DNA from: an uncultured Verrucomicrobiota bacterium
GTDB taxonomy: Bacteria > Verrucomicrobiota > Verrucomicrobiia > Limisphaerales > JAHDYP01
Reading direction: 5' to 3'
Assembly: GCA_964432995.1 (NCBI GenBank)
Contig: CAYSPU010000001.1
Span: forward strand, 2,253-64,296
Length of the DNA stretch: 62,044 nucleotides
Shown here in pieces: positions 38,568-61,882 of the stretch. Both the position numbers and the translations under genes were made by a program. Each line of letters starts with the position of its first letter. Positions within the stretch are counted from its first letter, which is position 1. The notes beneath the pieces were generated by a model. That model was not told the DNA's origin, did not search any database, and worked only from the letters and a program-made list of their open reading frames with translations.

Positions 38568-38681
38568 GCGCGGATGGTTCGAGATCGCGCCCGGTCGGTG
38601 AGGCTGCTGCCCGCCGGGACGGCGGGCGGTCCGGAGCGGCCAGACGGTGCTGGCCGCCCACCGTCAACCTGGGGATGCACC
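38568..38681. repeat. 114-nt interspersed repeat, inverted copy of 50427-50540
   Basis: My manual alignment of the reverse complement against 50427-50540 gives about 10 mismatches in 114 nt. Contains the internal hairpin CCCGCCG tccc CGGCGGG. Confidence 0.85.
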
Positions 38682-38759
38682 GAAGCCGCTCGCCCTCAGC
38701 AACCGCACGACAGCGGAACTCCTGGCACGATCAGGATTCCGGGGCCCCCGCGGTCGGCG

Positions 38760-48417: not shown

Positions 48418-49806
48418 TCACCATTTGCCGGTGCGGACCACCTTCGGCCTGGGCAACCCGTTGAGTTCCCGGATGGCGCTCCCCATTTCGCTCTCGGGCA
48501 GCGCGTAGTTGGAGAGCTTGCCCCGGAAGAAGTTGTCGTATCCGGAAAGGTCCATGAGCCCGTGACCGGAGAAGCCGAAGAGAATGACCTTCTCCTTCCC
48601 TTCTTCCTTGGCTTTCTTCGCCTCCTGGATGGCGGCGGCGATGGCGTGACTGGTCTCGGGCGCGGGAATGATCCCCTCCGTGCGGGCGAAGAGCACCGCC
48701 GCTTCGTAGCACTCGATCTGGTCGATGGCCCGCGGGGTGGCCAATCCCTCAATGATGGTCTGGCTCACGAGCGGGGCCATGCCGTGATACCGCAGGCCGC
48801 CGGCATGAATCGGAGGCGGAATGAAATCGTGGCCCAACGAATGCATGGGCAACAGCGGCGTCATCTTCGCCGTGTCGCCGTGGTCGTAGACAAACGGCGC
48901 CCGGGTCATGGTCGGGCACGACGTCGGCTCGACCGGGATGACGTCGATCGTGGCGCCGTTGATCTTGTCGTTGACGAACGGGAAGGCGAGCCCGGCGAAG
49001 TTGGATCCGCCGCCGGCGCAGCCGATGACGGCATCCACCTTCTTGACGCCGATTTTCTCGAACTGCTTCTTGGCTTCGAGCCCGATGATGGTCTGGTGGA
49101 GCATGACGTGGTTCAACACGCTCCCCAGGGAGTAACGGGTGGAGCCCGTCGGGTCGGTGACGGCGGCCTCGATCGCCTCGCTGATGGCGATGCCGAGGGA
49201 TCCGGGGGTGTTCGGGTGCTTGGCGAGGATCTGGCGGCCGGCGTTCGTCTGCGTGGAGGGGCTGGCGATGCAGGTGGCCCCCCAGGTTTCCATCATCAGT
49301 TTGCGGAAGGGTTTTTGGTCGAAGCTGATGCGGACCATGAAGACCTTGCATTCGAGGCCGAGGAGGGAGCAGGCGAAGGCGAGGGCGCTTCCCCACTGGC
49401 CGGCGCCGGTCTCGGTGGTGATCTTCTTGATGCCGAATTGCTTGTTGTACCAGGCCTGCGGGACCGCGGTGTTGGGCTTGTGGCTTCCCGGCGGGGAGAC
49501 GCTCTCGTTCTTGTAGTAGATCCGGGCGGGTGTCCCCAGGGCCTGCTCCAGGGCCAGGGCCCGGTGCAGGGGCGACGGCCGCCACTTGCAGAGAATGCCC
49601 AGCACCTCCTCGGGGATGTCAATCCAGCGTTGGGTGCTCACCTCCTGCTCGATGATGTTCATCGGGAAAACCGGCGCGAGCATGTCGGGGGTGATGGGTT
49701 TTCCGTCCGGCCCCAGCGGGGGCTGCAGGGGGGACGGGAGATCGGCGGCGAGGTTGTACCATTGCCGCGGCATTTCGTCTTCGGTCAGGAACACTTTGGT
49801 CTGCAT
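48418..49806 (-). CDS. trpB: TrpB2-type (long form) tryptophan synthase beta-like PLP enzyme
   Basis: 462 aa. [13 protein letters not shown]-terminus typical of TrpB2, PLP-lysine region [36 protein letters not shown]. Confidence 0.88.
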
Positions 49807-50370: not shown

Positions 50371-50426
50371 GCCACTCTTCATTCTGCATCCCCCCCGAGC
50401 GCCGGCCTGTTGTGGGGCGGACAACC

Positions 50427-50633
50427 GGTGCATCCCCAGGTTGTCTGTGGGTGACCAGCACCGTCTGGCCGCTCCGGACCGCCCGCCGTCCCGGCGGGCA
50501 GCAGCACCACACACCGGTCGCGATCTCGAACCACCCGCGCACTGCCGCCCACCGCAGCCGCTGCGACCGGGGACCGGTCGCGCTCCGCACCGCCCGCCCT
50601 CGGGGACTGGTGACCGACAACCTCCGGATGCAC
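50427..50633. repeat. MITE-like element of about 207 nt; its left 114 nt is the repeat shared with 38568-38681, and its ends form terminal inverted repeats
   Basis: The left end gtgcatccccaggttgtc matches the reverse complement of the right end, gtgcatccggaggttgtc, at 16/18 positions. No ORF with transposase character lies inside. Confidence 0.6.
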
Positions 50634-50859
50634 TGGCGAACAACAGCCGCCGAGTCCCGGCCTTCCCACCGTTGGGATGTCATCCCGCCGCCGAGGTGGG
50701 ACCATCCCGGAGCCGACAGAGCGCCCGTTCGCAGGGGCGAAAACCGCTCGTGGACCGGGGACGACCGAACCTTCAGCGTCACGGAGGCGAGGATCCGGGG
50801 CGAGGATCCGGGGCCTTGACTCCGTCTGGACAGCGCCCATGATGTGCGGCCTTGCCACA

Positions 50860-51675
50860 ATGAAGACTGCACCGCGCATTTCTCTGTCGAACGTCCAGGC
50901 CGTCTACGGCGGCCCCGAAGGCGATCTCTGGGAGTTGATCATGGGGGAACAGATTCACCTGGGCGGATTTCAGTCCTCGATGGCGCTGGCGGAGCGCGCG
51001 GGCATCGGGGCCGGCCAATCCGGGGTGGACCTGTGCTGCTGCACGGGGGCCGGCATGCGGTTCCTGGTCCGCTTCCGCCACGTCGCCCACATGACGGGCG
51101 TGGACGCCACGCCGCTGGTCCTGGAACGCGGGCGCCAGCGGACCGCGGCGGCGGGATTGGCCGACCGGATCGAGTTCCGCGAGGCGGACGTCTGCGCCAG
51201 CGGGTTGGCGGAGGCCGGCGTTGATTTCGTCTGGGGTGAGGACGCCTGGTGTTACGTGGCGGACAAGCGCCGGCTGATCGCCGAGGCGGCCCGCATGGTG
51301 AAGGCGGGGGGGAAGATCGCCTTTACGGATTGGGTGGAGGGGCCGACGCCGCTGGCGGAGTCCGAAGCGCAGCGGTTTCTGACGTTTATGAAGTTCCCCA
51401 GTCTGGCGAGCATCGGCGACTATCGGGGCTTGCTGGAGGCGAACGGGTGTCGGGTGGAAGCCGCGGAAGACACGGGGAGGTTCGCGCCGTGCATGGATCT
51501 GTACCTGGACATGCTGAGCCGCCAACTGACCTACGACGCCCTCCGCATCATCGGCTTCGACCTCCCGCTGATGCAGCAACTGGGGGCGGAGATGCGGTTC
51601 GCGCGGCAACTGACTCACGAGCGCAAGCTGGTGCAGGGGCAGTTCGTCGCCGTCAAAGGGAGCGGGCTGTCGTAA
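50860..51675 (+). CDS. class I SAM-dependent methyltransferase
   Basis: This is the 3' part of track ORF 50677..51675; ATG 50860 (ATG 50839 is an alternative). LWELIMGEQIHLGGF resembles the N-terminal motif of gamma-tocopherol/sarcosine-dimethylglycine-type methyltransferases. Motif I VDLCCCTGAGMRFL, motif post-II GKIAFTDW. Confidence 0.75.
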   Translation: MKTAPRISLSNVQAVYGGPEGDLWELIMGEQIHLGGFQSSMALAERAGIGAGQSGVDLCCCTGAGMRFLVRFRHVAHMTGVDATPLVLERGRQRTAAAGLADRIEFREADVCASGLAEAGVDFVWGEDAWCYVADKRRLIAEAARMVKAGGKIAFTDWVEGPTPLAESEAQRFLTFMKFPSLASIGDYRGLLEANGCRVEAAEDTGRFAPCMDLYLDMLSRQLTYDALRIIGFDLPLMQQLGAEMRFARQLTHERKLVQGQFVAVKGSGLS

Positions 51676-51688
51676 GGACTCCTTCTCT

Positions 51689-51781
51689 ATGACCAGGACA
51701 GAAAGCGGGGAGGAAACGGGGTGTGAGACCTGCGGGGGCAGCTTCTGGTGCGCTGCTGCCGGACGCGCTGCAGACACTTGA
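51689..51781 (+). CDS. 30-codon Cys-rich small ORF (speculative)
   Basis: ATG 51689 to TGA 51779-51781: MTRTESGEETGCETCGGSFWCAAAGRAADT. It starts 14 nt after the methyltransferase stop and ends 5 nt before the candidate GTG start of the next gene. Too short to judge its coding statistics. Confidence 0.2.
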   Translation: MTRTESGEETGCETCGGSFWCAAAGRAADT

Positions 51782-51785
51782 ACTC

Positions 51786-52993
51786 GTGAATGCCTCCACC
51801 TCAACACCCGGTGGTTGCGGCGGAAGCGCCGTGGCAGCGGCCGCGGCGCGCGAATCCGCCGCGCCCGATCCCCTCGAGTGGTTTCAGCGCATGATCCCGC
51901 GCTGCAAGGAATACGCGCTGGCGGCCCGGGCGTCGGGGCGCCCGGTGGTGGGGATCATGTGTGAGTATGCCCCGCGGGAGTTGGTGCTGGCGGCGGGCGC
52001 CGTGCCGGTCTGTCTGTGCGGCGGGGATCCGGATACGATTCCGTCGGCCGAGACGCGGCTGCCGACCAATCTCTGTCCGTTGATCAAGTCGACGTACGGT
52101 TACTGGGTGGAGCACGGCAACCCGTTCCTCGAGATGGCGGACTTCGTCCTGGCGGAAACGACGTGTTGGAGCTGCCCCATCGGGACAACGCCCCCGACGC
52201 CCGGGAGCAGTGGGTGCGGGAGTTGGCGCGGTTGCGGGATTTCCTGGCCACCCGCTACCGGGTGGAGGTGGATGACGCCCGGCTGCGCGCGGCGGTGCGC
52301 ACGATGAACCGGGAGCGCGGATTGCGGCGGCGGCTGGCGGATTTGATGAAGCGCGAGGCGCCGCCGCTGACGGGCCGCCAACTGCTGGATCTGAAGAGCA
52401 TCATCTCGGGGATTCCGGCCGATCTCGACCAGTATGAGCGGGCGCTCAAGTTGCTGGCGCAGGCGGACGGGGCGGCGGAACCGGGAGCCGCCCGGGGCGG
52501 CCGGCCGCGGGTCTTGCTCACGGGCGTGCCCCTGGTGCACGGGGCGGAACGCGTGCTCGAGATCATCGAAAGCAGCGGCGGACTGGTGGTGTGTCAGGAG
52601 AACTGCACCGGTCTCAAACCAATCCTCGAGGACGTGCCCGAGAACGCGTCCGATCTGTTGGGCGCGCTGGCGGACAAGTACTTTCACCTTCCGTGTTCGG
52701 TGCGAACGCCGAATGACGGGCGCTTCCAGACACTGCGTCAGTTGACGGCCGAGTTCCGGGCGGAGTGCGTCATCGAGCTGATCTGGCAGGCGTGCCTGAC
52801 GTACGCGATTGAAGCGGATCGGACGCGGCGGTTGGTGGAAGAGGAGCTGAAGCTGCCCTACCTGCGCATCGAGACCGACTATTCGCCGTCAGACTCGGCA
52901 CGGATCGCGACCCGGGTCGAGGCGCTGTTGGAGATGGTCAGCGACCGGCGCGGCGAGAGGGCGCCGCGAGGCACGGGGGGCAACGCTGCCTGA
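51786..52993 (+). pseudogene. 2-hydroxyacyl-CoA dehydratase / BcrB-BcrC / double-cubane-cluster family subunit, reading frame broken near 52163-52167
   Basis: The N-terminal part sits in track ORF 51723..52307 (...RPVVGIMCEYAPRELVLAAGAVPVCLCGG...LCPLIKSTYGYW...FVLAETTC). The C-terminal part sits in track ORF 52016..52993 (VLELPHRDNAPDAREQWV...RVLLTGVPLVHGAERVLEIIESSGGLVVCQENCTGLKP...ELIWQACLTYAIE...PYLRIETDYSPSD). Together they give about 403 aa. The start (GTG 51786) is uncertain. Confidence 0.7.
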
Positions 52994-53023
52994 ACTCGGC
53001 GTGAGGTTCGGGGCACTTCGACT

Positions 53024-54100
53024 GTGGATGCCGTGCGCTACATATCGCCGTGGGTGCCTCCGGAGTGGATTGCGGCCCACGGCCTGCGCCCGGTGCGGTG
53101 GGTGCCGGGGGCGACGGCGGCGCGGCGGCTGACCTCGGGGCCGATGGGCGTTTGTCCGTTCGCGCTGGCGGTGGCGGCGTCCGCCGCGGAGGCCCCGGGT
53201 CGGGCGTTGGTTGTGGCCGCACGCTGCGATCAACTGCGGAGGACGGCGGATGCGATCGGGCCCGACGATTCGGTCTCAGTGGACGCGCGGGGCCGCGCGT
53301 CCCTCCTACCTGCCGTTGGCGGCGCCCTCGGAGAGGTCGTCCTCCCGGATGTTCCAAGGGAGGTGCCGGCGGTGTTTTTGTTGGCCGTTCCGGCGACGGC
53401 GGGCAATCCGAACGCGGAGGACTGCTATCGCCTGGAGTTGGAGCGGTTGGGACGTTTCCTGGTGCGGCGGGGCGGCCGGCCGCCGGCCGCCGGCGCCTTG
53501 CGACGGGAGATGCAGCGCTACGCCGAGGCGCGGCTCGAGTTGCGCGCTCGCCGCGGCGAGTTCGGGGCGCGTGCCTTCGCCGAGGCGGTGATCCGTGTGG
53601 AATCGGATGGAACGCTGCCACCGAAACAGGAAGGCAGACCTTCGCCAGCGGGGCGGGCCGGAATCCCGGTGGCCCTGGTGGGCGGCCCTCTGCGGCGAAC
53701 GCATCTGGAGCTTCTGGACCGCATCGAGTCTCGCGGCGGTCGTATGGTGCTGGACGCGACGGAGAATGGCGAACGCGGCTTGCCGCCGCCGTCTGAAGCG
53801 GAGAGGGCGCAGCGCGACCCCTTGGGGGCGTTGGCGCACGCGTTCCTCGAGGGGATCCCCGATGTCGCGCAGCGACCGAACACGGGTTTTCATGCGTGGC
53901 TGGCCGGGCGGGTGCGGGAGCGCGGCGCGCGCGGGGTGATTGCCTGGCACTACCCGTGGTGCGACGTCTGGCAGGCGGAGGTGGCGCGTCTCCAGGAGAC
54001 GCTGGGCGTGCCGGTGCTCGACCTGGACGCGGGGGATTCGGAAGGGCTGACTCCCCAAGTGGACACGCGGCTGCAGGCGTTTCTCGAGATGCTGACGTGA
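53024..54100 (+). CDS. 2-hydroxyacyl-CoA dehydratase / BcrB-BcrC family subunit (second paralogue)
   Basis: 358 aa with a GTG start. ISPWVPPEWIAAHGLRPV N-terminus, VALVGGPL....LELLDRIESRGGRMVLDATENG, GVIAWHYPWCDVWQAEV, LDLDAGDSEGL....RLQAFLEML. Confidence 0.72.
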   Translation: MDAVRYISPWVPPEWIAAHGLRPVRWVPGATAARRLTSGPMGVCPFALAVAASAAEAPGRALVVAARCDQLRRTADAIGPDDSVSVDARGRASLLPAVGGALGEVVLPDVPREVPAVFLLAVPATAGNPNAEDCYRLELERLGRFLVRRGGRPPAAGALRREMQRYAEARLELRARRGEFGARAFAEAVIRVESDGTLPPKQEGRPSPAGRAGIPVALVGGPLRRTHLELLDRIESRGGRMVLDATENGERGLPPPSEAERAQRDPLGALAHAFLEGIPDVAQRPNTGFHAWLAGRVRERGARGVIAWHYPWCDVWQAEVARLQETLGVPVLDLDAGDSEGLTPQVDTRLQAFLEMLT

Positions 54101-55482
54101 ACGATCGTCCGGCCAAGATCGGTCTGGAGGAATGGGACGCCCGACAGGGCGCGCTCGGCGACGCGAGCGGCGGGGGGTGCGGCTACGGGGGGCCGCTGGG
54201 ACGCCACGTTGGCGAGCGGGGCGATCTGCGGTTGCGGCACCTGCAATTTGACAACTCGGCCGCGGCGCTGCGCCTGTGGAACCTGGTGTTGACCGAGGAA
54301 GACCGGCTGCGGGCGCATCGGGCGCAGGGGCGCAAGCTGGTGGGGACGATGAAGGACCTGGGGACCGTGCCGGTGCTGGCCTATGCCCTGCCGAATCTCG
54401 TGGCGTTCTACCCGGACGGATCATGGTGGACGCCATGTTGGATGGAGTGTTCGGACGGCCTGTTCCAGGTCGCCGACCGGCTGGGCATTGACGAGTCGTT
54501 CTGCCCCGTGCGGGCCATGCTGGGGGCGTTCGTCACCCGCGCGCACTTCCCCCTCCCCGACTTCCTCGTGTGCAGCGTCGGGGCGGTATGCGACGATTTC
54601 ACGGCAATCGCGCAGCGGCTGGAGTCGCTGGGCCATCCGATCTTTTGGTGGGAAATGCCGCGGCGGCGGAAGCCGGATCCGGATGAGGCCGCCGTGGTCC
54701 TTCCGGGAGGGATGGTCGCCCCGCGCGTGCAAGTGGATTTGGTCTCGGCGGAGTTGGCGCGGGTGCGGCGCGCACTGGAGTCGTTGGCGGGCCGGCCGCT
54801 GGACGACGCGACGCTCGCGGAGGGGATCCGGCACGCCAACGCTGTCCGCCGCCGGATTACGCGGCTGCGACAGACGGTCTTCCAGGCGAGCGTTTGTCCG
54901 CTGCCGGCGCTCGAGATGTTGCTGGTGGACGCTCTGGCCATTCATTACTGCTCGGACCGCGCGGAGACGATCGCGGTCCTGGACGAATTGCAGGCGGAAG
55001 TGAACCGTCGGGTGGCGCAGGGGGAGGGAGTGCTTTCCCCGGAGGCGGTGCGGCTCTACTGGGTGAACCCAGTGGCGGACTTGCGCCTGATGAATCTCGT
55101 TGAGGAGTGGGGCGGGAGGATCTGCGGCGCCGACTACCTGTTCGGGCACGCGCTGGTGGAGATTCCGGAGGAGTTGCCGCCATTGGAAGCCCTGGCGCGG
55201 GTGGCGTTGGCCGATCCGATGGTGGGATCGGCGGAGGACCGTGCCGGGCAGGTGGCGAGCGAGGTGCTGGGGTTGGGAATCGAAGGACTGGTCGTCTCGC
55301 GCATTCCGGGGGCCAGTCATTGCGCCCACGAGGGAGCCTATTTGCGGGAAGAGGTCGCCCGGCGCGCCGCGGCGCCGGCGGTCGAGATCGAGGTGCCGCC
55401 GCTGTGCGACGGTCTCGAGGCCGCCCTGCATTCGCGTTTGCAGGCCCTGTTGGAGACGGTGCAATCGAGGAGGGCAACATGA
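54097..55482 (+). CDS. 2-hydroxyacyl-CoA dehydratase / BcrB-BcrC family subunit (third, longest paralogue)
   Basis: This is the 3' part of track ORF 53896..55482. GTG 54097 overlaps the upstream TGA (GTGA). GRKLVGTMKDLGTVPVLAYA, ESFCPVRAMLG, DFLVCSVGAVCDDF, LYWVNPVADLRLMNLVEEWGGRICGADYLF, GLVVSRIPGASHCAHEGAYL. Confidence 0.75.
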   Translation: MNDRPAKIGLEEWDARQGALGDASGGGCGYGGPLGRHVGERGDLRLRHLQFDNSAAALRLWNLVLTEEDRLRAHRAQGRKLVGTMKDLGTVPVLAYALPNLVAFYPDGSWWTPCWMECSDGLFQVADRLGIDESFCPVRAMLGAFVTRAHFPLPDFLVCSVGAVCDDFTAIAQRLESLGHPIFWWEMPRRRKPDPDEAAVVLPGGMVAPRVQVDLVSAELARVRRALESLAGRPLDDATLAEGIRHANAVRRRITRLRQTVFQASVCPLPALEMLLVDALAIHYCSDRAETIAVLDELQAEVNRRVAQGEGVLSPEAVRLYWVNPVADLRLMNLVEEWGGRICGADYLFGHALVEIPEELPPLEALARVALADPMVGSAEDRAGQVASEVLGLGIEGLVVSRIPGASHCAHEGAYLREEVARRAAAPAVEIEVPPLCDGLEAALHSRLQALLETVQSRRAT

Positions 55483-56255
55483 TCGCGGTGGGAGTCGATG
55501 CCGGGTCGCGCATGACGAAGATCGTCCTTTGGGACCGGGGGCGCGGTGCCGTGGCGGCCACGGGATCGGTGGAGCATCACGTCGACCAGGGGGCTTCGGC
55601 GCGGGAGTTGCGGGACGCGTTGCTGCGGCAGGTCGGGCACACCACCGCGGAGGTCAAGGGGGCGGTGGCGACGGGTTACGGACGGAACCTGGTGGACTTT
55701 GCCGACACGACGATCACGGAGATCACATGCCACGCTCGTGGCGTTCGGGAAGGGCGCCCGGAGGTGCGAACGATCATCGAGATCGGCGGACAGGACAGCA
55801 AGTTGATCCGACTGGACGAGCGCGGGCACGTGCGGGACTTCATGATGAACGACCGTTGTGCGGCGGGCACCGGGCGGTTCCTGGAGATGGTCGCTCAGCG
55901 AGTGGGAGTGGGGCTGGGTGATTTGGGAGGGTTGGCGCGGGCCAGCGGGGCACCGGCCGTGATCAGCAGCATGTGCGTGGTGTTTGCCGAGACCGAGATC
56001 ATCGGTTTGTTGGCAGGCGGACGGCAAGCGGCAGACGTGGTGGCAGGGGTGCAGGCGGCGATAGCCGTCCGGGTGGGCGGGATGGTGGGCCGGCGGCTGG
56101 AGCAACCGGTCTGTTTCACCGGGGGGGTGGCCATGGTGCCTGGAATGGTCGAGGCCCTGCAGAAGGTCTTGGACTGCCCCGTGGGCGTGGTGCCCGAACC
56201 GATGTTCACCGGCGCGCTGGGAGCGGCGGTTCTCGCCGCCGAACGGTGCCGCTGA
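55479..56255 (+). CDS. activase ATPase of the BcrA/BcrD/BadF/BadG/HgdC family (CoA-substrate-specific enzyme activase)
   Basis: ATG 55479 overlaps the upstream TGA (ATGA). MIAVGVDAGSRMTKIVL, ATGYGR, EITCHARG, IIEIGGQDSKLI, NDRCAAGTGRFLE and ISSMCVVFAETEIIGL (the two cluster-ligand Cys contexts of HgdC-type activators), FTGGVA. Confidence 0.88.
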   Translation: MIAVGVDAGSRMTKIVLWDRGRGAVAATGSVEHHVDQGASARELRDALLRQVGHTTAEVKGAVATGYGRNLVDFADTTITEITCHARGVREGRPEVRTIIEIGGQDSKLIRLDERGHVRDFMMNDRCAAGTGRFLEMVAQRVGVGLGDLGGLARASGAPAVISSMCVVFAETEIIGLLAGGRQAADVVAGVQAAIAVRVGGMVGRRLEQPVCFTGGVAMVPGMVEALQKVLDCPVGVVPEPMFTGALGAAVLAAERCR

Positions 56256-56272: not shown

Positions 56273-56977
56273 CTATCCGGAGACGATCCGACTGAAGTGG
56301 ATCGAGTCCTCGTACCGCTTGCTCATGTAGCGGAGGCGAGTGGCAAGGGCCCGGGCCAGACCCAGGGCGAAGGGCATGGCCAAGGCGGGGGCTTCGCGCA
56401 AGATGGTCTCGAAATTCGCGGCCGTCATCCGCAGGAGAAGGCTGTCCTTGTTGGCCGCCACGTTGGCGCTCCGCACGCCGTGGTCCAGCAGCGCGATTTC
56501 ACCGAACGACTCGCCGGGCAGGATTGTCGCGAGGATGGTCTCCTTCCCCTCGTGAACCAGGAACGCGCGCACCTCGCCCTCCAGCAGGAAGTAGATCGCA
56601 TCGGCCGGATCGCCCTCCCGCACCACGGTCGTGAAGATCCGGACCTCGAGCGGTTCCATGTAGCGCAAGAGGGATTCGAGAGCGCGCTCCTCCATGTCCG
56701 CGAGGATCTTGATGCGCCGGAGCGCACCGGCGGTAACCCGCTGCATTTGGCTGGAGGTGCGCGGTGCGCCGGCGGGCCGGTCGCGAAAGAACATCCTGAG
56801 TTCCAGCACCTCTGCTGCCCGCAACCACGACATGACCTGATCCAGGAAGAGCCAGGTGTCCGCCAGCACCCGGCCGTCCTTGATCCAGCTCACCAGGGTG
56901 GGCAGTTCGACCGGGCCGTAAGCGATGCAGTCCGCACCCCAGACTCGATAGGTAGGCGTTTCGTCACTCTGGTTCAT
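56273..56977 (-). CDS. GYF_2 (DUF4339)-like N-domain plus a cyclic-nucleotide-binding domain protein
   Basis: N-terminus YRVWGADCIAYGPVELPTLVSWIKDGRV...TWLF. cNMP-binding motifs GDPADAIYFLLEGEV, GESFGEIALLD...RSANVAA. No DNA-binding or enzymatic output domain is visible. Confidence 0.75.
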   Translation of the reverse strand: MNQSDETPTYRVWGADCIAYGPVELPTLVSWIKDGRVLADTWLFLDQVMSWLRAAEVLELRMFFRDRPAGAPRTSSQMQRVTAGALRRIKILADMEERALESLLRYMEPLEVRIFTTVVREGDPADAIYFLLEGEVRAFLVHEGKETILATILPGESFGEIALLDHGVRSANVAANKDSLLLRMTAANFETILREAPALAMPFALGLARALATRLRYMSKRYEDSIHFSRIVSG

Positions 56978-56996
56978 GGCACCGCGGGAAGTTGTC

Positions 56997-57761
56997 TCAC
57001 GAAGCGGCTTTGCGCGCCACGAGAAAGGCGTTGAACATCGCGTAGCGAAGCGGGGTGGCGTTCAACAACCGGTCGAGCACCGGAGCGACGTAGCGGTCCG
57101 TGCACTCCACCCGTTCCACCCGGCAGCCCGCGCGCTCCAGGAAGAACCGCATTTCCAGCGCGTTGGTGGCCACAATCGCGTCGTCATCCGGTGTGAACGG
57201 CTCCTTGACGACGGGCGTCATGCGGTCGAACCGCACCTCACCCGGAGCGCGCCGCATCATCCGGCGCTTGGCCAGGAGCCGGGCCGCATTCCGCCATTTG
57301 TTCCCCAAACCGCGCATCCGATGATGGTAGTCGCGGAAGCCGAGCACGCGAAAGAAGTTGGGGCTGGACACGACGACCCGGCCGCCCGCTTCGGCCACGC
57401 GCGCCAGCTCGGGCAGGAATGCCTCCGGTTCCTCCACATGCTCGAGGACGTTCAGGGCGCCCACACTCGCGAAGTATCCATCGGGATACGGAAGCCGGCG
57501 CCCGTCGTAGAGGCGGCAATGGGGACTTCGATTCCGGGCGCGTTCGATGTTGGGCTCCGAGACATCCACGCCGTGCGCCTCGAAGCCGGCCTCGGCCAGC
57601 CGGCCGACCACCTGCCCGGCGCCGCATCCCACGTCGAGGACGCGTCCCCCGGCCCGGGCCGGCCGCAGCGTGTCGGCATACTTCGCGTAGAAGCCCGGGT
57701 CCCAGTGGTCCAGGAACTCCGCATAGGCCTCGTTGTGCCGGTAGGTCTCCTGGTGGCTCAT
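56997..57761 (-). CDS. class I SAM-dependent methyltransferase
   Basis: Start trimmed to the ATG at 57761, which overlaps the upstream stop (ATGA). Motif I RVLDVGCGAGQVV, plus FASVGALNVLEHVEEP and GGRVVVSSPN. Confidence 0.8.
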   Translation of the reverse strand: MSHQETYRHNEAYAEFLDHWDPGFYAKYADTLRPARAGGRVLDVGCGAGQVVGRLAEAGFEAHGVDVSEPNIERARNRSPHCRLYDGRRLPYPDGYFASVGALNVLEHVEEPEAFLPELARVAEAGGRVVVSSPNFFRVLGFRDYHHRMRGLGNKWRNAARLLAKRRMMRRAPGEVRFDRMTPVVKEPFTPDDDAIVATNALEMRFFLERAGCRVERVECTDRYVAPVLDRLLNATPLRYAMFNAFLVARKAAS

Positions 57762-60415
57762 CGGTCCTTCTGGCGCGAGCTCACGACGACGAAGCCGCAG
57801 AGCGCCAGGCCGGCGATCCAGCCGGCGAGGCTGACGTAGAACATGCGTCGCGGCGGCACGAAACGGAACTCGACCGTGTGCGCCCCGGGCTCGAGGCGGA
57901 CGCCGCGCATGATGAAGTTGCAGCGCAGCAGCGGTTGTTCGGCGCCGTCCACCCACACCCGCCAATCCGGATGGTGCCGGTCATTGAGCAGCAGCAGCGC
58001 CGGAGCCGTTGCCTCCGCCTGCAACCGCAGATACTTCGGCTCGCTCCGTTCCCAGGTCACCGTCCCGATCGCGGTGTTGGTTCCGGGCGACGCGACCGTC
58101 GCCATCGGCTCCGCCACGAGCACCGTCTGGTGGGGGTCGAACTCGAGGCTGGCCAGGCGCTGCAACGTCGCCGTGTCGTTGGTCTCCACCTCCCAGCGAG
58201 CGAAGAGTCGGGCGCGCGGGAGAGCCCCCGCAAACTCGAACAGCGCATAGATCCCATTCGGGTCGGGCGCCGCGGACAGGTCCTGCGCTGAAACGGCCGC
58301 CGCTTTCCCGGCTTTGGGGACGATGGAGAAATTCGTCAGGACCCGGAACCGCCCTTTGCCAGGATCCAGCCCCGTGTTCAGTTGGGAGAGGAATCCCGCC
58401 ATGCCAATGACATGCCGCACGGAACCCAGTTCCCAGAGCCGGGCGATGCGGTACATGTTGGTCTCACCGGTCGGCAGGAAGTTCTTGATGCAGGCCGTGT
58501 CGAACTCCGGGGGCCGCGACATCTGGATGATGTCGAGCGACGGCACCCGGTAAAAGGGAAAGTGGTGCTGCAGCCACTCGGTGAAGTAGAGGTGCACCAG
58601 CAACTGCCCCTGCTCGGTGACCAGGTACGACTGGGTCATGGGCGACAGTTTGGCGGCCACACGGTAGCGATCCGGGTTGTCGCGGAGACGCTCGAGGATC
58701 GGGTTGGTCGCGTACTTGTAGTGGTAATCGTAGTAAATGACCCAGGGCAGATCGGCTCGGGCCAGGTCCAACACCAACACGCCGCCGAGCGCCAGCCCCG
58801 CCCACCGTGCCCTCCGCCCCGCAAACACTCCGGCCAGGACCAGAACCAACACCCCAGCCGACAACGCGAGAAACACGATGAACCAGCCAGCCTCGCGCAA
58901 GCTGAACTGGGCGATGGATCGCGCCAGGGTGGCATCGGCAAAACCGGCTGACCGGAGGTACGCGGTGAGTTCGTCGAGCGAACCGGCATACACGAGCCAG
59001 GCCAGTCCGCTCAGCCCGATGGCCGCCGCCATCCCCTGCACCCACCAGCGGTCCACCCCGCTCACTGCCCGCCACCAGCCGCGGAGGTGTGCCGTCCAGG
59101 CGACTGTCCGCTCCGGCAGGCCTCGCACATACCCGCGAATCAAGCCTTCCACCCCGCAGGCAAATAGAATCCCGATCGACAGATGAAACGGATGCAGAAA
59201 CTTGAGCGGGTTCCGAATGGTCGAGAAATACGGCAGCGCGTAGGCGATGCGGTAGAGCGGCGTATGCCGCCCAAACGCGAGCAGCAAGGAGATCAACGCG
59301 GCGCCGGCCCAGAACCAGATCAGGCGGCGTTGCCAGGGCGCATACGGGCTGTTGCGTCCCCGAAGCGATTGGCCCACGCCCCACAACGCGACCAGTGTGA
59401 CCAGAACGCCCGCAAATTCGCCGCATCCGGAATGCCGCCCGGCCGGGTTCCCCGGCGGCGCCCCCACCTCGCCCCAGTAGTTGGACCCGCCCACGCTGTC
59501 TTCCGGGTCGCCGTAAAGATGCGGCATGCGGTAGCCAAACAAACCCGGGATCACCACCCGCAAAGCCTCGACACGCGGCAGGCTCCACAACGTCGCTTCC
59601 ATCCAGCGATTCTCCTTGGTGCGCTCGTCCTGCTGCATCCCCACCACGCCCTTGACCTGGGTGCCGATCAACGTGGTCACGGCTTGGGCGGCGATGAACG
59701 CGGCGAAGATCGCCACGACCGCCACGCGTGCGCCCGCAACGGCCCAGCGCCGGGCGCCCGTCCCCCCCTTCTCGGCGGTCAGCCCCTGGTAGAGCACGAA
59801 CGCCCCGACGTACAGGCTGAAGATGGCGCCCACATCGAAGCCCTCCATCAGCGCGAGCCCGACCGCGAGACCGGCCAGCGCGGCGCGGGCCCAACCGTGA
59901 GGAACGCCGGCGCGCGGCCAGGCGGCCAGCGCCAGGAAGATACAGGCGCGGGCCAGCCCCCAGTTCGCCAGCCCCCAGCAACTCACCGAGAACACGTTCA
60001 TGTTCAAGGCAACGGCCAAGCCGCCGAGGATGCAGGCCGTCAGACTGAACCCGAGCTGGCGGAAGAAGAGCCAGGCCGCCAAGCCCAAGACCAACAAGGC
60101 GACGGGGACGTGCAGCTTGGCAAAGGCAATGGGCCGAACCGCCACCAGCAGCACATCCGTCAGCCGCAGCAAGCCCCCCACCGCTTCGCCCCCCAGCCAT
60201 GTCAGATCCTGCCACTGCCCGAAGAAGTTCTGCGCGCCGCTCTCGGCCTGCGCCATGTTGGCGCCCAGCGGCCCGTCGTTCGCAAACAAGACCTGACCCG
60301 GCTCGAAGCTCCGATGAAAGAAGAAACACAACACCAGGACCAGGATCCCCAACATCCAGAAGAATCCCCTGCCCCGTTGTTCGGCCACGACCCTCGCCTC
60401 ATCTGCAGCAGGCAT
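57758..60415 (-). CDS. large polytopic membrane protein, YfhO-like (GT-C-type glycosyltransferase-like)
   Basis: ATG 60415 is preferred over the TTG at 60460. More than 12 predicted TMs. C-terminal pattern HPDWRVWVDGAEQPLLRCNFIMRGVRLEPGAHTVEFRFVPP followed by a final TM, as in YfhO-family proteins. Confidence 0.6.
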   Translation of the reverse strand: MPAADEARVVAEQRGRGFFWMLGILVLVLCFFFHRSFEPGQVLFANDGPLGANMAQAESGAQNFFGQWQDLTWLGGEAVGGLLRLTDVLLVAVRPIAFAKLHVPVALLVLGLAAWLFFRQLGFSLTACILGGLAVALNMNVFSVSCWGLANWGLARACIFLALAAWPRAGVPHGWARAALAGLAVGLALMEGFDVGAIFSLYVGAFVLYQGLTAEKGGTGARRWAVAGARVAVVAIFAAFIAAQAVTTLIGTQVKGVVGMQQDERTKENRWMEATLWSLPRVEALRVVIPGLFGYRMPHLYGDPEDSVGGSNYWGEVGAPPGNPAGRHSGCGEFAGVLVTLVALWGVGQSLRGRNSPYAPWQRRLIWFWAGAALISLLLAFGRHTPLYRIAYALPYFSTIRNPLKFLHPFHLSIGILFACGVEGLIRGYVRGLPERTVAWTAHLRGWWRAVSGVDRWWVQGMAAAIGLSGLAWLVYAGSLDELTAYLRSAGFADATLARSIAQFSLREAGWFIVFLALSAGVLVLVLAGVFAGRRARWAGLALGGVLVLDLARADLPWVIYYDYHYKYATNPILERLRDNPDRYRVAAKLSPMTQSYLVTEQGQLLVHLYFTEWLQHHFPFYRVPSLDIIQMSRPPEFDTACIKNFLPTGETNMYRIARLWELGSVRHVIGMAGFLSQLNTGLDPGKGRFRVLTNFSIVPKAGKAAAVSAQDLSAAPDPNGIYALFEFAGALPRARLFARWEVETNDTATLQRLASLEFDPHQTVLVAEPMATVASPGTNTAIGTVTWERSEPKYLRLQAEATAPALLLLNDRHHPDWRVWVDGAEQPLLRCNFIMRGVRLEPGAHTVEFRFVPPRRMFYVSLAGWIAGLALCGFVVVSSRQKDR

Positions 60416-60478
60416 AGAAGAACTTCGCAGGACGATGCCGCCCGCCCCGGGAAGATTCAACCCGAATTGCCGCGCGGC

Positions 60479-61882
60479 TCAAGGACGCAGCGTGAGCACT
60501 TCCCCCATCATCGGCCGGCTCGAGTCCAGGCCAAACCGCTCGCGAATCTGCTCCGCCAAGGCGTCGCGACGCTTGGGTTCGCCGTGGGTCAGGATCACGC
60601 GCGGCCGACTTGGGGCCAGCGGGGACAGCCACTCGAGCAATTCCCGTTGCCCGGCATGCGCGCTGAAGCCGCCCAGCGTGTGGATCCGGGCGCGCACGGC
60701 GACCTTCTCGCCGAAGATGGAGACGCTCGTGGCGCCGTCGACAAGCTGCCGGCCGAGGCTGCCTTCGGGCTGGAAGCCAACGATGAAGACCACCGTGCCA
60801 TCCCGCCAGAGGTTCTGTTTGAGGTGATGCAGGATGCGCCCGGCGGTGCACATGCCGGAACCGGCCAGGATCAGACAGGGACCGGCGCAATCGTTGAGCT
60901 GGCGCGATTCGTCGGCGGTCGGCGTTGGCCGCACCGTGGTCAGATCCGCCTCGATCGGTCGCTCGCGCTGGAGCGCCTGGAAATCCTCGTCGAAAAGCTC
61001 GAGATGCCGCCGGTAGATGCGCGTGGCTTCGATCGCCATCGGGCTGTCAATGTAGATCGGGAACGGCGGCACCAGCTTCTGCCGGAACATCACCGCCAAC
61101 AAATAGAGCAACAACTGGGCGCGGCCCACGGCAAAGGTCGGAATCAGGATCTTGCTCTTCCGTTCGACGGCGGTTTTCACCAGCGACTCGAACTCGGCCA
61201 GCGTGTCGGGCAGCGGCTTGTGATCATGACCGCCGTAGGTCGACTCCAGCACCACCACGTCCCCCTGCTGGAACCCGGCCGCGTCCTTCAGCAGCGGGGC
61301 GTCCTGCCGCCCGAGGTCGCCCGAGAACACAATCGTCTGGCGACTGCCGTCGTCCTCCACGAGCAACTGGATGCTGGCGGACCCGAGCAGGTGGCCGGCT
61401 TCCACCCAGCGCGCGCGGATTCCCGGAGCCACCGGAACGAACTCGTCATAGGCCACCGGCCGGAAGAGGGGCAGGAACCGCTCGACCTCCGCCGTCGAAT
61501 ACAGGGGCTCAAGCGGCGGATCTCCGGCACGCTCGCGCTTCCGGTTCGTGCGAACCAGGTCCTGCGCCTGAACGCGCGCCGAGTCGTGCAGGATGAGACT
61601 CGTCGCCTCGCGGGTGGCCTCCGTCCCGTACACCGGGCCGTCGTAACCGGCCTTGGCCAGCAACGGCAGCCGCCCCGTGTGATCCAGATGGGCGTGCGTG
61701 ACGAGCACCGCCTGCAGCGCCCGCGCCTCCCAGGGCAGAGGCTCGTGATTGCGCGCCTCCGCCTCGCGCCCCCCCTGAAACAGCCCGCAATCGATCAGGA
61801 CATTCGCCCGCGATGTCCGAAGTTGATACGCCGATCCGGTGACACCACCGGCGGCCCCGTGGAAGTGAAGTTGAATGGCCAT
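60479..61882 (-). CDS. MBL-fold metallo-hydrolase with a beta-CASP / RNA-specificity domain
   Basis: MAIQLHFHGAAGGVTGSAY..........VLIDCGLFQG, VLVTHAHLDHTGRLP, SGDLGR, GGFSAHAGQ.EL, VILTHGE. Confidence 0.85.
   Translation of the reverse strand: MAIQLHFHGAAGGVTGSAYQLRTSRANVLIDCGLFQGGREAEARNHEPLPWEARALQAVLVTHAHLDHTGRLPLLAKAGYDGPVYGTEATREATSLILHDSARVQAQDLVRTNRKRERAGDPPLEPLYSTAEVERFLPLFRPVAYDEFVPVAPGIRARWVEAGHLLGSASIQLLVEDDGSRQTIVFSGDLGRQDAPLLKDAAGFQQGDVVVLESTYGGHDHKPLPDTLAEFESLVKTAVERKSKILIPTFAVGRAQLLLYLLAVMFRQKLVPPFPIYIDSPMAIEATRIYRRHLELFDEDFQALQRERPIEADLTTVRPTPTADESRQLNDCAGPCLILAGSGMCTAGRILHHLKQNLWRDGTVVFIVGFQPEGSLGRQLVDGATSVSIFGEKVAVRARIHTLGGFSAHAGQRELLEWLSPLAPSRPRVILTHGEPKRRDALAEQIRERFGLDSSRPMMGEVLTLRP

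Follow-up and report, generated by a model that had tools for sequence, protein, structure and literature searches.

A conserved operon for a probable ATP-driven, low-potential iron-sulfur reductase and its possible role in selenium metabolism

Herein, we describe a five-gene operon on a 62,044-nucleotide stretch of DNA from an uncultured Verrucomicrobiota bacterium (GenBank assembly GCA_964432995.1, contig CAYSPU010000001.1, 64,296 nt long); the whole stretch is referred to as the window. The operon encodes a class I S-adenosylmethionine (SAM)-dependent methyltransferase (MT), three subunits (A, B, and C) of the superfamily formed by class I benzoyl-CoA reductases (BCR-I), 2-hydroxyacyl-CoA dehydratases (HAD), and double-cubane cluster proteins (DCCPs), and a single activase (ACT). 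We read it as a conserved operon for an ATP-driven iron-sulfur (FeS) reductase of very low potential that acts in selenium metabolism, and we put the probability of this reading at about 0.5. Its enzymological part is well supported, and the selenium assignment was made because of gene linkage in related genomes and co-occurrence data in the literature. The genomic link to selenium is strong, and it appears in related genomes, beyond the window to which a preliminary description of this DNA had been confined.

A pattern scan of the GTDB species-representative genomes detected relatives of C at 411 places in at least six phyla. The best 80 of these 411 places all lay in metagenome-assembled genomes or metagenome assemblies, and 83 loci (numbered with the prefix L) were compared overall. 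The 80 belonged to Planctomycetota (Phycisphaerae, Sedimentisphaerales, and Pirellulales), Verrucomicrobiota, Armatimonadota, Lentisphaerales, Sumerlaeota, Acidobacteriota, and one Nitrospiraceae bin. Gene order was tallied for the 51 untruncated loci, window included, and all five genes were present in 44 of them. The order MT-A-B-C-ACT followed by the selenophosphate synthetase gene SelD was found in 24 loci, MT-A-B-C-ACT in 10, and A-MT-B-C-ACT, mainly in Verrucomicrobiota, in nine, while eight loci showed other orders. The recurrent core was MT-B-C, which was kept in all 51 loci except two that had no MT (L051, A-B-C-ACT; L030, A-B-B-C-ACT, with B detected in two pieces). B was likewise detected in two pieces in L084 (MT-A-B-B-C-ACT-SelD), where all five genes were present. 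Relatives of C that are only 37–45% identical keep MT, subunits with the Pfam HGD-D domain, and activase, as at L091 (MT?-HGD-HGD-C-ACT). Two loci with C proteins of 37–38% identity had arrangements of their own: L092 (8125-13365) reads MT, an HGD-D subunit, an 867-aa fused C-type protein, and activase, beside Fur and a ZnuABC-like transporter, and at L094 (1923-13511) the cluster is split, with MT and one HGD-D gene right behind a gene for SelD fused to AhpD and with C-HGD-ACT at a distance of 4.5 kb. The components belong to a known superfamily, and A to a known family; as far as we checked, what is new is the way the subunits are combined, the families of B and C, the obligate partnership with a methyltransferase, and the linkage to SelD. 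We found no published account of MT-A-B-C-ACT as a module, of the families of B and C, or of their position next to SelD; this search did not cover Haft & Tolstoy 2025 (mSystems).

The most frequent neighbour of the module was a gene for SelD fused to an AhpD/CMD domain (SelD-AhpD). The selenium tally is based on the 40 loci in which C has flanks of at least 6 kb in both directions. Near C, SelD-AhpD was found in 29 of these loci, SelA in 23, SelB in 20, and a family that we call FEYG-U in 18, and 33 loci carried at least one of the four. The SelD start usually lies 35–250 nt past the activase. An Armatimonadota contig has the order selA, selD-AhpD, selB, MT, A, B, C, ACT, and a Verrucomicrobiae contig has A, MT, B, C, ACT, selA, selB, selD-AhpD. 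The SelD of the module is authentic (TIGR00476, 367 bits). In the fusion protein, six Cys form an invariant motif at the N-terminus (HCxC-x5-CPC-x8-CxC), the linker contains a CC dipeptide, and the AhpD part has its CxPC. In L009 the active site of SelD is a selenocysteine (U), the sole recoded site among the core genes. Published data tie DCCPs to the same enzyme: of 970 strong NF040772 DCCPs, 955 come from assemblies that encode SelD, a pattern for which processing of a selenium compound or, formally, a Se-bridged 2(4Fe-4S) cluster was offered as an explanation (Haft & Gwadz, 10.1101/2022.07.06.499078). In Slackia, HGD-type subunits and an activase are listed, without comment, among the STRING partners of selenium genes (Lin et al. 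2015, PMC5322559, Table 1).

Two of the neighbouring families, FEYG-U and CPT-U, both unannotated, are apparently new selenoprotein families. FEYG-U proteins are secreted or N-terminally anchored and beta-rich, and gene callers stop them at '...FEYG'. The frame runs on through TGA to give FEYG-U-GGxC-RYSWRVPxxFKGKYQVQVDxDLGPF, with a UxxxC motif, in more than 50 copies. A conserved 8-bp hairpin, GGUACUCG-UGG-CGAGUGCC, lies 13 nt past the UGA; 95.6% of its positions pair, a share that falls to 25–49% if one arm is shifted against the other, and some pairs differ between copies through wobble or compensatory exchanges. CPT-U is a small protein with a single transmembrane segment that ends in CPT-UGA-x-x-stop, that is, a CxxU motif with a C-terminus of the 'UXX-star' type, and the TGA was present in 11 of 11 loci. 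Its hairpin (8 bp with a 3-nt loop, 14–18 nt downstream of the UGA) overlaps the start codon of the next gene, which always encodes a NapH/MauN-like Fer4_5 membrane ferredoxin. When U was replaced by C, the full-length FEYG-U and CPT-U proteins matched no NCBIfam family, and FEYG-U matched no Pfam family either. One FEYG paralog (L053:160-1407) has Arg in place of U. Neighbour families were defined as those shared by at least two of the 83 loci, and 24 were inspected in detail. Other recurrent members were DUF3034 and, in a few loci, an SsuA-like ABC system. The substrate-binding protein of the latter, with the motif NHPCCCIAAN (a CCC motif; L086:1205-2416), recurred near the module in some loci of Sedimentisphaerales (seven loci, with the ATPase in 11 and the permease in seven); against the SaoX model the binding protein scored 34 bits (cutoff 300).

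Within the window, the preliminary description had reported five co-directional, tightly packed genes, and all five were confirmed on the plus strand at those positions (Table 1). Its statement that the last three genes are coupled by start/stop overlaps was also borne out: GTGA at 54097-54100 (B/C) and ATGA at 55479-55482 (C/activase) were both read in the sequence. B, C, and activase are thus translationally coupled, in the window and in most loci, and A and B are separated by an intergenic gap. The three subunits had been described as paralogues of one family. The family match holds for A, B, and C, but their roles are not equivalent: A is a DCCP, B is of the beta type, and C is of the alpha type, so that the three are functionally distinct and not interchangeable.

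Judged by its sequence, A is a true member of the DCCP family. Its intact allele, found in another assembly of the same organism (L089), scored 393.5 bits on NF040772 (cutoff 350), orthologs of A scored 412–424 bits, and the L005 ortholog reached 203 bits against the DCCP structure 6ENO. Intact A has all seven Cys of the DCCP motif, which comprises six cluster ligands and one nearby Cys (C59, C78, C97, C127, C292, C322, and C355), with a spacing (x18/x18/x29/x164/x29/x32) slightly off the published one. The archerase-type reductase (DCCP-R) that goes with a DCCP is also present, as the adjacent activase. In the window the gene is split into two fragments, which scored 64 and 207 bits on HGD-D (PF06050) and 107 and 235 bits on NF040772; four of the DCCP Cys lie before the break and three after it.

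The frame break reported for this gene, which had been given as 51786-52993, is real. It is a clean 55-nt deletion just after the Cys of ETTC, by which the conserved DGKKKMFELLGETKPTFL stretch is lost and the frame is shifted. The start of the gene, however, is ambiguous (GTG at 51723, as in the gene call of L089, or GTG at 51786), and A is intact in L089 (GCA_029556785.1, contig JAKQAK010000266.1). L089 is 99.8% identical to the window upstream of the junction and 100% identical downstream, and it has the extra 55 nt (L089:1825-1879); a protein of the same assembly, P0241, is 100% identical to the MT of the window. Since this independent assembly is free of the deletion, the break is a strain polymorphism or an assembly artefact rather than a sign of decay in the lineage. 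Downstream of the deletion, A had a nonsynonymous to synonymous ratio (dN/dS) of 0.18 in comparison with L001, to which A is 86.5% identical over the part compared. A pseudogene reading of A was rejected because of the intact gene in the independent assembly and this low dN/dS. An in-frame TGA in the A gene of L045, a single case, was read as a sequence error or a pseudogene. Two independent Logan contigs of a related organism (L001:1 and L002:1) end exactly at the conserved CDGKKKM-coding stretch of A, the same point as that of the deletion. Assemblers evidently have difficulty there, and the coincidence suggests either that the assembly graph branches at a motif which the paralogues have in common or that an indel recurs at this place.

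According to their profiles and predicted models, subunits B and C appear to form a beta/alpha heterodimer with the architecture of BzdN/BzdO or HadC/HadB. B matched HGD-D over its C-terminal half only (87 bits) and is much less conserved than C, with family identities mostly of 36–51% and a nearest relative at 86%. Its invariant Cys are C44, C68, and C313, which in HMM alignments fall on Cys3, Cys4, and Cys7 of DCCP, the same three positions that are kept in HadC. Among profiles of solved structures, B matched BzdN (70 bits), DCCP (70–80 bits), and HadC (39–43 bits). Its AlphaFold model (pLDDT 87.9) gave DCCP, BzdN (TM 0.78), and HadC as the best Foldseek matches, with alpha/O-type chains far lower. 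These features would fit a single cubane with one open iron site that has no Cys ligand. In the lineage of the window and L001, B contains a 31-aa insertion (residues 81-111; window 53264-53356; pLDDT below 50), and the near-invariant NVPxTWQ motif is replaced by AVPATAG in the window lineage, by which TWQ is lost.

C is the most conserved subunit within its family, with the nearest relative (P0001) at 92% and the other listed homologs at 59–69% identity across phyla. It matched HGD-D with 108 bits but is very distant from all other HGD-D proteins, and only 289 of 1.84 billion representative proteins reached E≤1e-3 to C. An exact look-up of the window's C protein in the contig index gave no record. 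It has seven invariant Cys (C114, C136, C159, C165, C285, C343, and C409). In a profile–profile alignment with the A family, C114, C136, C165, and C409 fall on DCCP Cys2, Cys3, Cys4, and Cys7 and C343 lies in the Cys5 loop. C has no equivalent of Cys1 or Cys6, and it has two additional Cys, C159 and C285. Sequence comparison with solved structures covered only the C-terminal half (DCCP 59 bits, BzdO 25 bits), and over the whole chain the AlphaFold model (pLDDT 84) matched HadB (TM 0.73–0.84), DCCP, BzdO, and MbdO, the alpha/O-type chains ranking first. On NF040772, B and C scored 47 and 41 bits, below the DCCP cutoff, and in NCBIfam release 20, which includes the families of Haft, they reached no family cutoff; they sat in no characterised clade. 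Relative to L001, whose C is 92% identical, dN/dS was 0.34 for B (the operon maximum), 0.17 for C, and 0.13 for the activase; the flanking genes had 0.08–0.10. In the same comparison, dS was 0.23–0.26 in B and C (window 53024-55482), about half of that in the activase and downstream flanks (0.49–0.62; flanks 56273-61882), for which recent recombination or extra codon constraint is possible.

As the preliminary description had proposed, the first gene encodes a class I SAM methyltransferase (Methyltransf_11, 55 bits). The MT family is 59–68% identical across phyla, with a mean column identity of 77%, and SAM motif I (VDLCCCxGAG) contains an invariant CC(C), to which C131 and C197 are added. MT stayed under every NCBIfam cutoff, the best being the DVU_1556 family with 50 bits (cutoff 155). 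Its nearest solved structures are phosphoethanolamine and sarcosine/dimethylglycine N-methyltransferases (73–64 bits), and there was no ArsM among its 19 matches to solved structures at E≤1e-6. Membership of MT in the ArsM family was rejected, because MT scored 38 bits on NF008823 (cutoff 263) and has different structural neighbours. The activase scored 177 bits on BcrAD_BadFG and 221 bits on TIGR00241, the acyl-CoA dehydratase activase domain (cutoff 125). Both of its Cys contexts for ligands of the bridging cluster were found again, Cys127 in NDRCAAGTG and Cys166 in SSMCVVFAE. The window has one activase gene, and 77 of the 83 loci have one each.

The preliminary description had held that three subunits, one activase, and a methyltransferase fit no characterised system and form an ATP-driven radical or low-potential enzyme system that may act on a methylated or non-CoA small molecule, and comparison with known systems supports this. 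With DCCP/DCCP-R (Carboxydothermus hydrogenoformans CHY_0487/0488; structures 6ENO and 7YYL; Escherichia coli YjiM/YjiL), the module shares the DCCP itself, its pairing with a single activase of the homodimer type, and the statistical tie to SelD-encoding genomes. Here, however, the DCCP is accompanied by two divergent paralogues (B and C) and a SAM methyltransferase, and the activase is coupled to C instead of A. DCCP acts as a reductase of acetylene, azide, and hydrazine, and CoA esters would not fit through its narrow channels (PMC7317905). In the published framework, DCCP is a homodimer, BzdNO carries an [8Fe-9S] cluster on N and an aqua-[4Fe-4S] cluster on O, and HadBC has two 3-Cys cubanes (PMC11971306; PMC7317905).

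BzdNO and MbdNO (8S02 and 9G87) resemble B/C in that an N-type and an O-type chain of the same fold are combined (BzdO/MbdO matched C at TM of about 0.7). A many-Cys cluster would likewise sit on one subunit, the other having a 3-Cys cubane whose iron site is open, and ATP-driven reduction is also predicted for B/C. The Cys-rich site, however, is on the O-type C and the 3-Cys site on the N-type B, the reverse of BzdNO, and a single activase gene takes the place of the two different ATPase subunits (BcrA/D or BzdP/Q). HadBC/HadI, HgdAB/HgdC, FldBC/FldI, and LcdAB share with the module an alpha/beta heterodimer with a single homodimeric activase, the three Cys positions of HadC are found in B, and HadB is the best fold match of C. 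In contrast to the three Cys per subunit of these dehydratases, a number that B shares, seven Cys are invariant in C. The module further has a DCCP and a methyltransferase, and a CoA-transferase is missing. The sequence similarity to HadBC is marginal (HadB 18.6 bits, HadC 20–43 bits). Finally, the SAO locus (Haft & Gwadz 2022/2023) also combines DCCP and activase genes with selenoproteins that have metal-type Cys/Sec motifs, and likewise depends on SelD and occurs in anaerobic lineages. It differs in its selenoproteins, which are FEYG-U and CPT-U here, in having no counterparts of B, C, and MT, and in its taxa, namely Clostridia, spirochetes, and Deltaproteobacteria as against PVC-group bacteria and Armatimonadota. 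No window protein matched the NCBIfam models of SaoA/B/C/D/E/L/P/T/X.

Based on these comparisons, the following mechanism can be proposed. The archerase-type ATPase, presumably a homodimer with one bridging [4Fe-4S] cluster, would drive electrons into two acceptor modules at the expense of ATP hydrolysis. The first would be A, with a double-cubane [8Fe-9S] cluster and presumably homodimeric like the solved DCCP; the second would be the B/C heterodimer, in which B would carry a 3-Cys cubane with an open iron site and C a Cys-rich cluster, possibly a variant double cubane. C would probably be the catalytic subunit. The stoichiometries and cluster types are those expected from the Cys sets and homologs. 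MT would be an obligate partner that methylates the substrate, an intermediate, or the product, and the substrate would be a small non-CoA molecule. The likeliest role would be to mobilise a selenium species by reduction, or to handle it, and to pass the reduced selenium on to the Cys-rich SelD-AhpD; selenium as the substrate and a flow towards SelD are both inferred. The Se(0)/HSe- couple is very negative, so an ATP-energised reductant would be sensible if the substrate were elemental selenium. A more specific version is tentative, and we consider it possible at best: a dedicated selenium-mobilising machine, in which recalcitrant selenium species (elemental, poly-selenium, or organoselenium) would be reduced at the clusters of A and B/C and handed to SelD-AhpD for selenophosphate, while MT would divert or prepare a methylated selenium intermediate. 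In a variant of it, B/C would be a NifEN-like scaffold that builds a Se-containing double-cubane cofactor for A.

If selenium is indeed mobilised in this way, it would be the first physiological role for double-cubane proteins. The operon makes two questions testable, the physiological substrate of DCCP, whose structure was solved in 2018, and the source of selenide for SelD in strict anaerobes, and it supplies a defined set of genes for expression and a short list of candidate substrates. For the BCR-I/HAD/DCCP family it would be a new composition, with one homodimeric and one heterodimeric acceptor on one archerase. It also flags an unrecognised selenium-related trait in bacteria of the PVC group and Armatimonadota from anoxic sediments, bogs, and lakes.

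Several observations weigh against a role in selenium metabolism. Seven of the 40 well-flanked loci carry no selenium gene, and there is no conserved in-frame TGA (selenocysteine) in MT, A, B, C, or activase across the 83 loci. The window has no selD, selA, selB, FEYG-U, CPT-U, or NapH-like gene across its 62 kb, and the 92%-identical relative L001 is likewise without these selenium genes, so the functional inference for the window copy is imported from orthologous loci. Homologs of DUF3034 and of the ABC substrate-binding protein were also absent in a homolog search of the window. The adjacency of sel genes could reflect neighbouring selenoprotein genes and not selenium handling by the reductase. 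Moreover, the five genes are not strictly inseparable, since A is missing nearby in L060 (MT-B-C-ACT), L079, and L083 (both MT-B-C), and the activase is missing in L079, L083, and L035 (MT-A-B-C); in L003 (SelD-MT-B-C-ACT) A lies about 5 kb upstream. The closest solved relatives of MT, finally, methylate small amines and are not ArsM-type metalloid methyltransferases.

An alternative that we regard as unlikely, though it accounts for part of the data, is an organometal(loid) chemistry resembling SAO, in which arsenic, tellurium, antimony, or mercury species are methylated or reduced by MT and the reductases and the sel genes are nearby only because the neighbouring FEYG-U and CPT-U proteins of the periplasm or membrane bind that metal via selenocysteine. 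The UxxxC and CxxU motifs of these families are typical of metal or redox sites, and the SAO system is likewise tied to DCCPs (10.1101/2022.07.06.499078). MT has weak matches to ArsM-type and selenoprotein-methyltransferase models, the ABC substrate-binding protein of seven loci is weakly similar to SaoX, and one distant relative stands beside Fur-ZnuABC genes. However, the tightest and most frequent partner is SelD itself, just after the activase or before MT, and not the selenoprotein genes. In addition, MT fails as an ArsM member (38 against 263 bits) and has amine N-methyltransferases as structural neighbours, and no ars, mer, or Sao genes were found among the neighbour families inspected.

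Cofactor maturation by the logic of nitrogenase seems improbable. Here the work would be done by A, and B/C would serve, like NifEN, as the scaffold for a modified (for example, Se-bridged or methylated) double cubane; the activase would have a double role like NifH, and SelD would donate selenium. It would agree with the occurrence of DCCP being almost a subset of that of SelD and with the Se-bridged 2(4Fe-4S) cluster listed as a formal possibility (10.1101/2022.07.06.499078). A, B, and C are, moreover, paralogous scaffolds with differing Cys sets, and B and C are coupled to the activase. Yet C is the most conserved subunit and some loci have MT-B-C without A, which suggests that B/C has a catalytic function of its own. 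Class I SAM methyltransferases are not known to act in cluster maturation, which we also count against this scheme. The clusters of the solved DCCP and BzdN, too, were refined with bridging sulfur (PMC11971306; PMC7317905).

We consider it very improbable that the operon encodes a conventional CoA-thioester enzyme, either a 2-hydroxyacyl-CoA dehydratase or an aryl-CoA reductase, whose activating and downstream genes lie elsewhere in the genome. The fold family is shared with HadBC and BzdNO, and source annotations read 2-hydroxyacyl-CoA dehydratase or BcrC/BadD/HgdB. Scores on the equivalog models, however, were far under the cutoffs (BzdN 47/454, BzdO 18/449, BcrC 21/421, and HadC at most 22/700, the last from A fragments only, with no match for B and C), a single activase gene is found in place of two distinct ATPase subunits, and the channels of DCCP would not admit CoA esters (PMC7317905). 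The earlier observation that pathway genes are absent also stands: the open reading frames (ORFs) scanned across the 62 kb included no gene for a CoA-transferase, CoA-ligase, acyl-CoA dehydrogenase, ferredoxin, or flavodoxin. No CoA-ester pathway gene, CoA-transferase, CoA-ligase, acyl-CoA dehydrogenase, or hydratase appeared in the window or the 24 neighbour families inspected, nor did ferredoxin or dienoyl-CoA pathway genes of class I benzoyl-CoA reductases.

Least of all is the operon a decaying remnant in this genome, a reading that is largely refuted: to set against the frameshifting deletion in A, the insertion, lost TWQ motif, and highest dN/dS (0.34) of B, and the absence of selenium genes nearby, A is intact in L089 and in the part past the deletion shows a dN/dS of 0.18 with its three C-terminal DCCP Cys kept, C and activase are at 0.17 and 0.13, and all family-invariant residues are retained. 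The preliminary description had named three kinds of finding that would speak against it. What we found instead was an arrangement conserved in other genomes, B and C outside every characterised clade, and cluster Cys kept in genes under constraint (the invariant Cys of B, C, and MT and all seven of A are present, with dN/dS of 0.13–0.34 in the operon), which supports its interpretation.

Table 1. Coordinates of the operon, its flanks, and selenium-related genes in related loci
Feature	Sequence	Position	Strand	Basis or remark
MT, class I SAM-dependent methyltransferase, 271 aa	Window	50860..51675	+	Pfam Methyltransf_11
Subunit A, DCCP, frame-broken here	Window	51723..52993 (start 51723 or 51786)	+	NF040772, HGD-D
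55-nt deletion junction within A	Window	52163..52164	+	Alignments to L001/L002 and L089
Subunit B, beta/BzdN/HadC-type, 358 aa	Window	53024..54100	+	Alignments, PDB profiles, Foldseek
Subunit C, alpha/BzdO/HadB-type, 461 aa	Window	54097..55482	+	Conservation, profile alignment, AlphaFold model
Single activase of HgdC/DCCP-R type ('archerase'), 258 aa	Window	55479..56255	+	BcrAD_BadFG, TIGR00241
Sigma-70-like promoter match TTGACT-16-CATGAT, just 5' of the MT start codon	Window	50816..50843	+	Consensus match only
TrpB-like pyridoxal phosphate (PLP) enzyme, divergent flank	Window	48418-49806	-	
Cyclic nucleotide (cNMP)-binding protein, convergent flank	Window	56273-56977	-	
SelD-AhpD	L005	10236-11840		
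SelD-AhpD	L003	3300-4871		
SelD-AhpD	L087	2882-4498		
SelD-AhpD	L088	16011-17621		
SelD-AhpD	L094	1923-3521		
FEYG-U	L005	1545-2933; 3138-3794		Also in L003, L021-L026, L036, L042, L043, L049, L063, L068, L069, L080, and others
CPT-U	L005	12150-12404		11 loci in total
CPT-U	L003	5063-5398		

The promoter match upstream of MT is weak evidence, with one match found against 0.3 expected in shuffled sequences. At gathering thresholds, an Rfam scan of the window gave zero matches, so there is no known riboswitch in the gap of about 1 kb 5' of MT, and a tRNA scan of the window gave zero matches as well. The lineage guessed in the preliminary description, Verrucomicrobiota, gains some weak support from the TrpB-like protein of the window, whose cluster at 90% identity or above contains proteins that their sources name Verrucomicrobiota. 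Elsewhere the window contains glycoside hydrolases, a secretin/PilM system, a subtilase, and giant Ig/PKD proteins, and a small KS/ACP/SDR gene set is also present.

The non-coding gap of about 1 kb between the TrpB-like gene and MT also contains one copy of a 115-nt intergenic repeat, which occurs in the window as two inverted copies (50426-50540, plus strand; 38568-38682, minus strand) that are 91% identical and have no Rfam match. On the other side of the operon, a second class I methyltransferase gene (Methyltransf_11/23, MetW-like; 57000-57761, minus strand), unrelated to MT and outside the operon, lies between the cNMP-binding gene and a gene for a 900-aa YfhO-like membrane protein; its counterpart in L001 is 90.6% identical.

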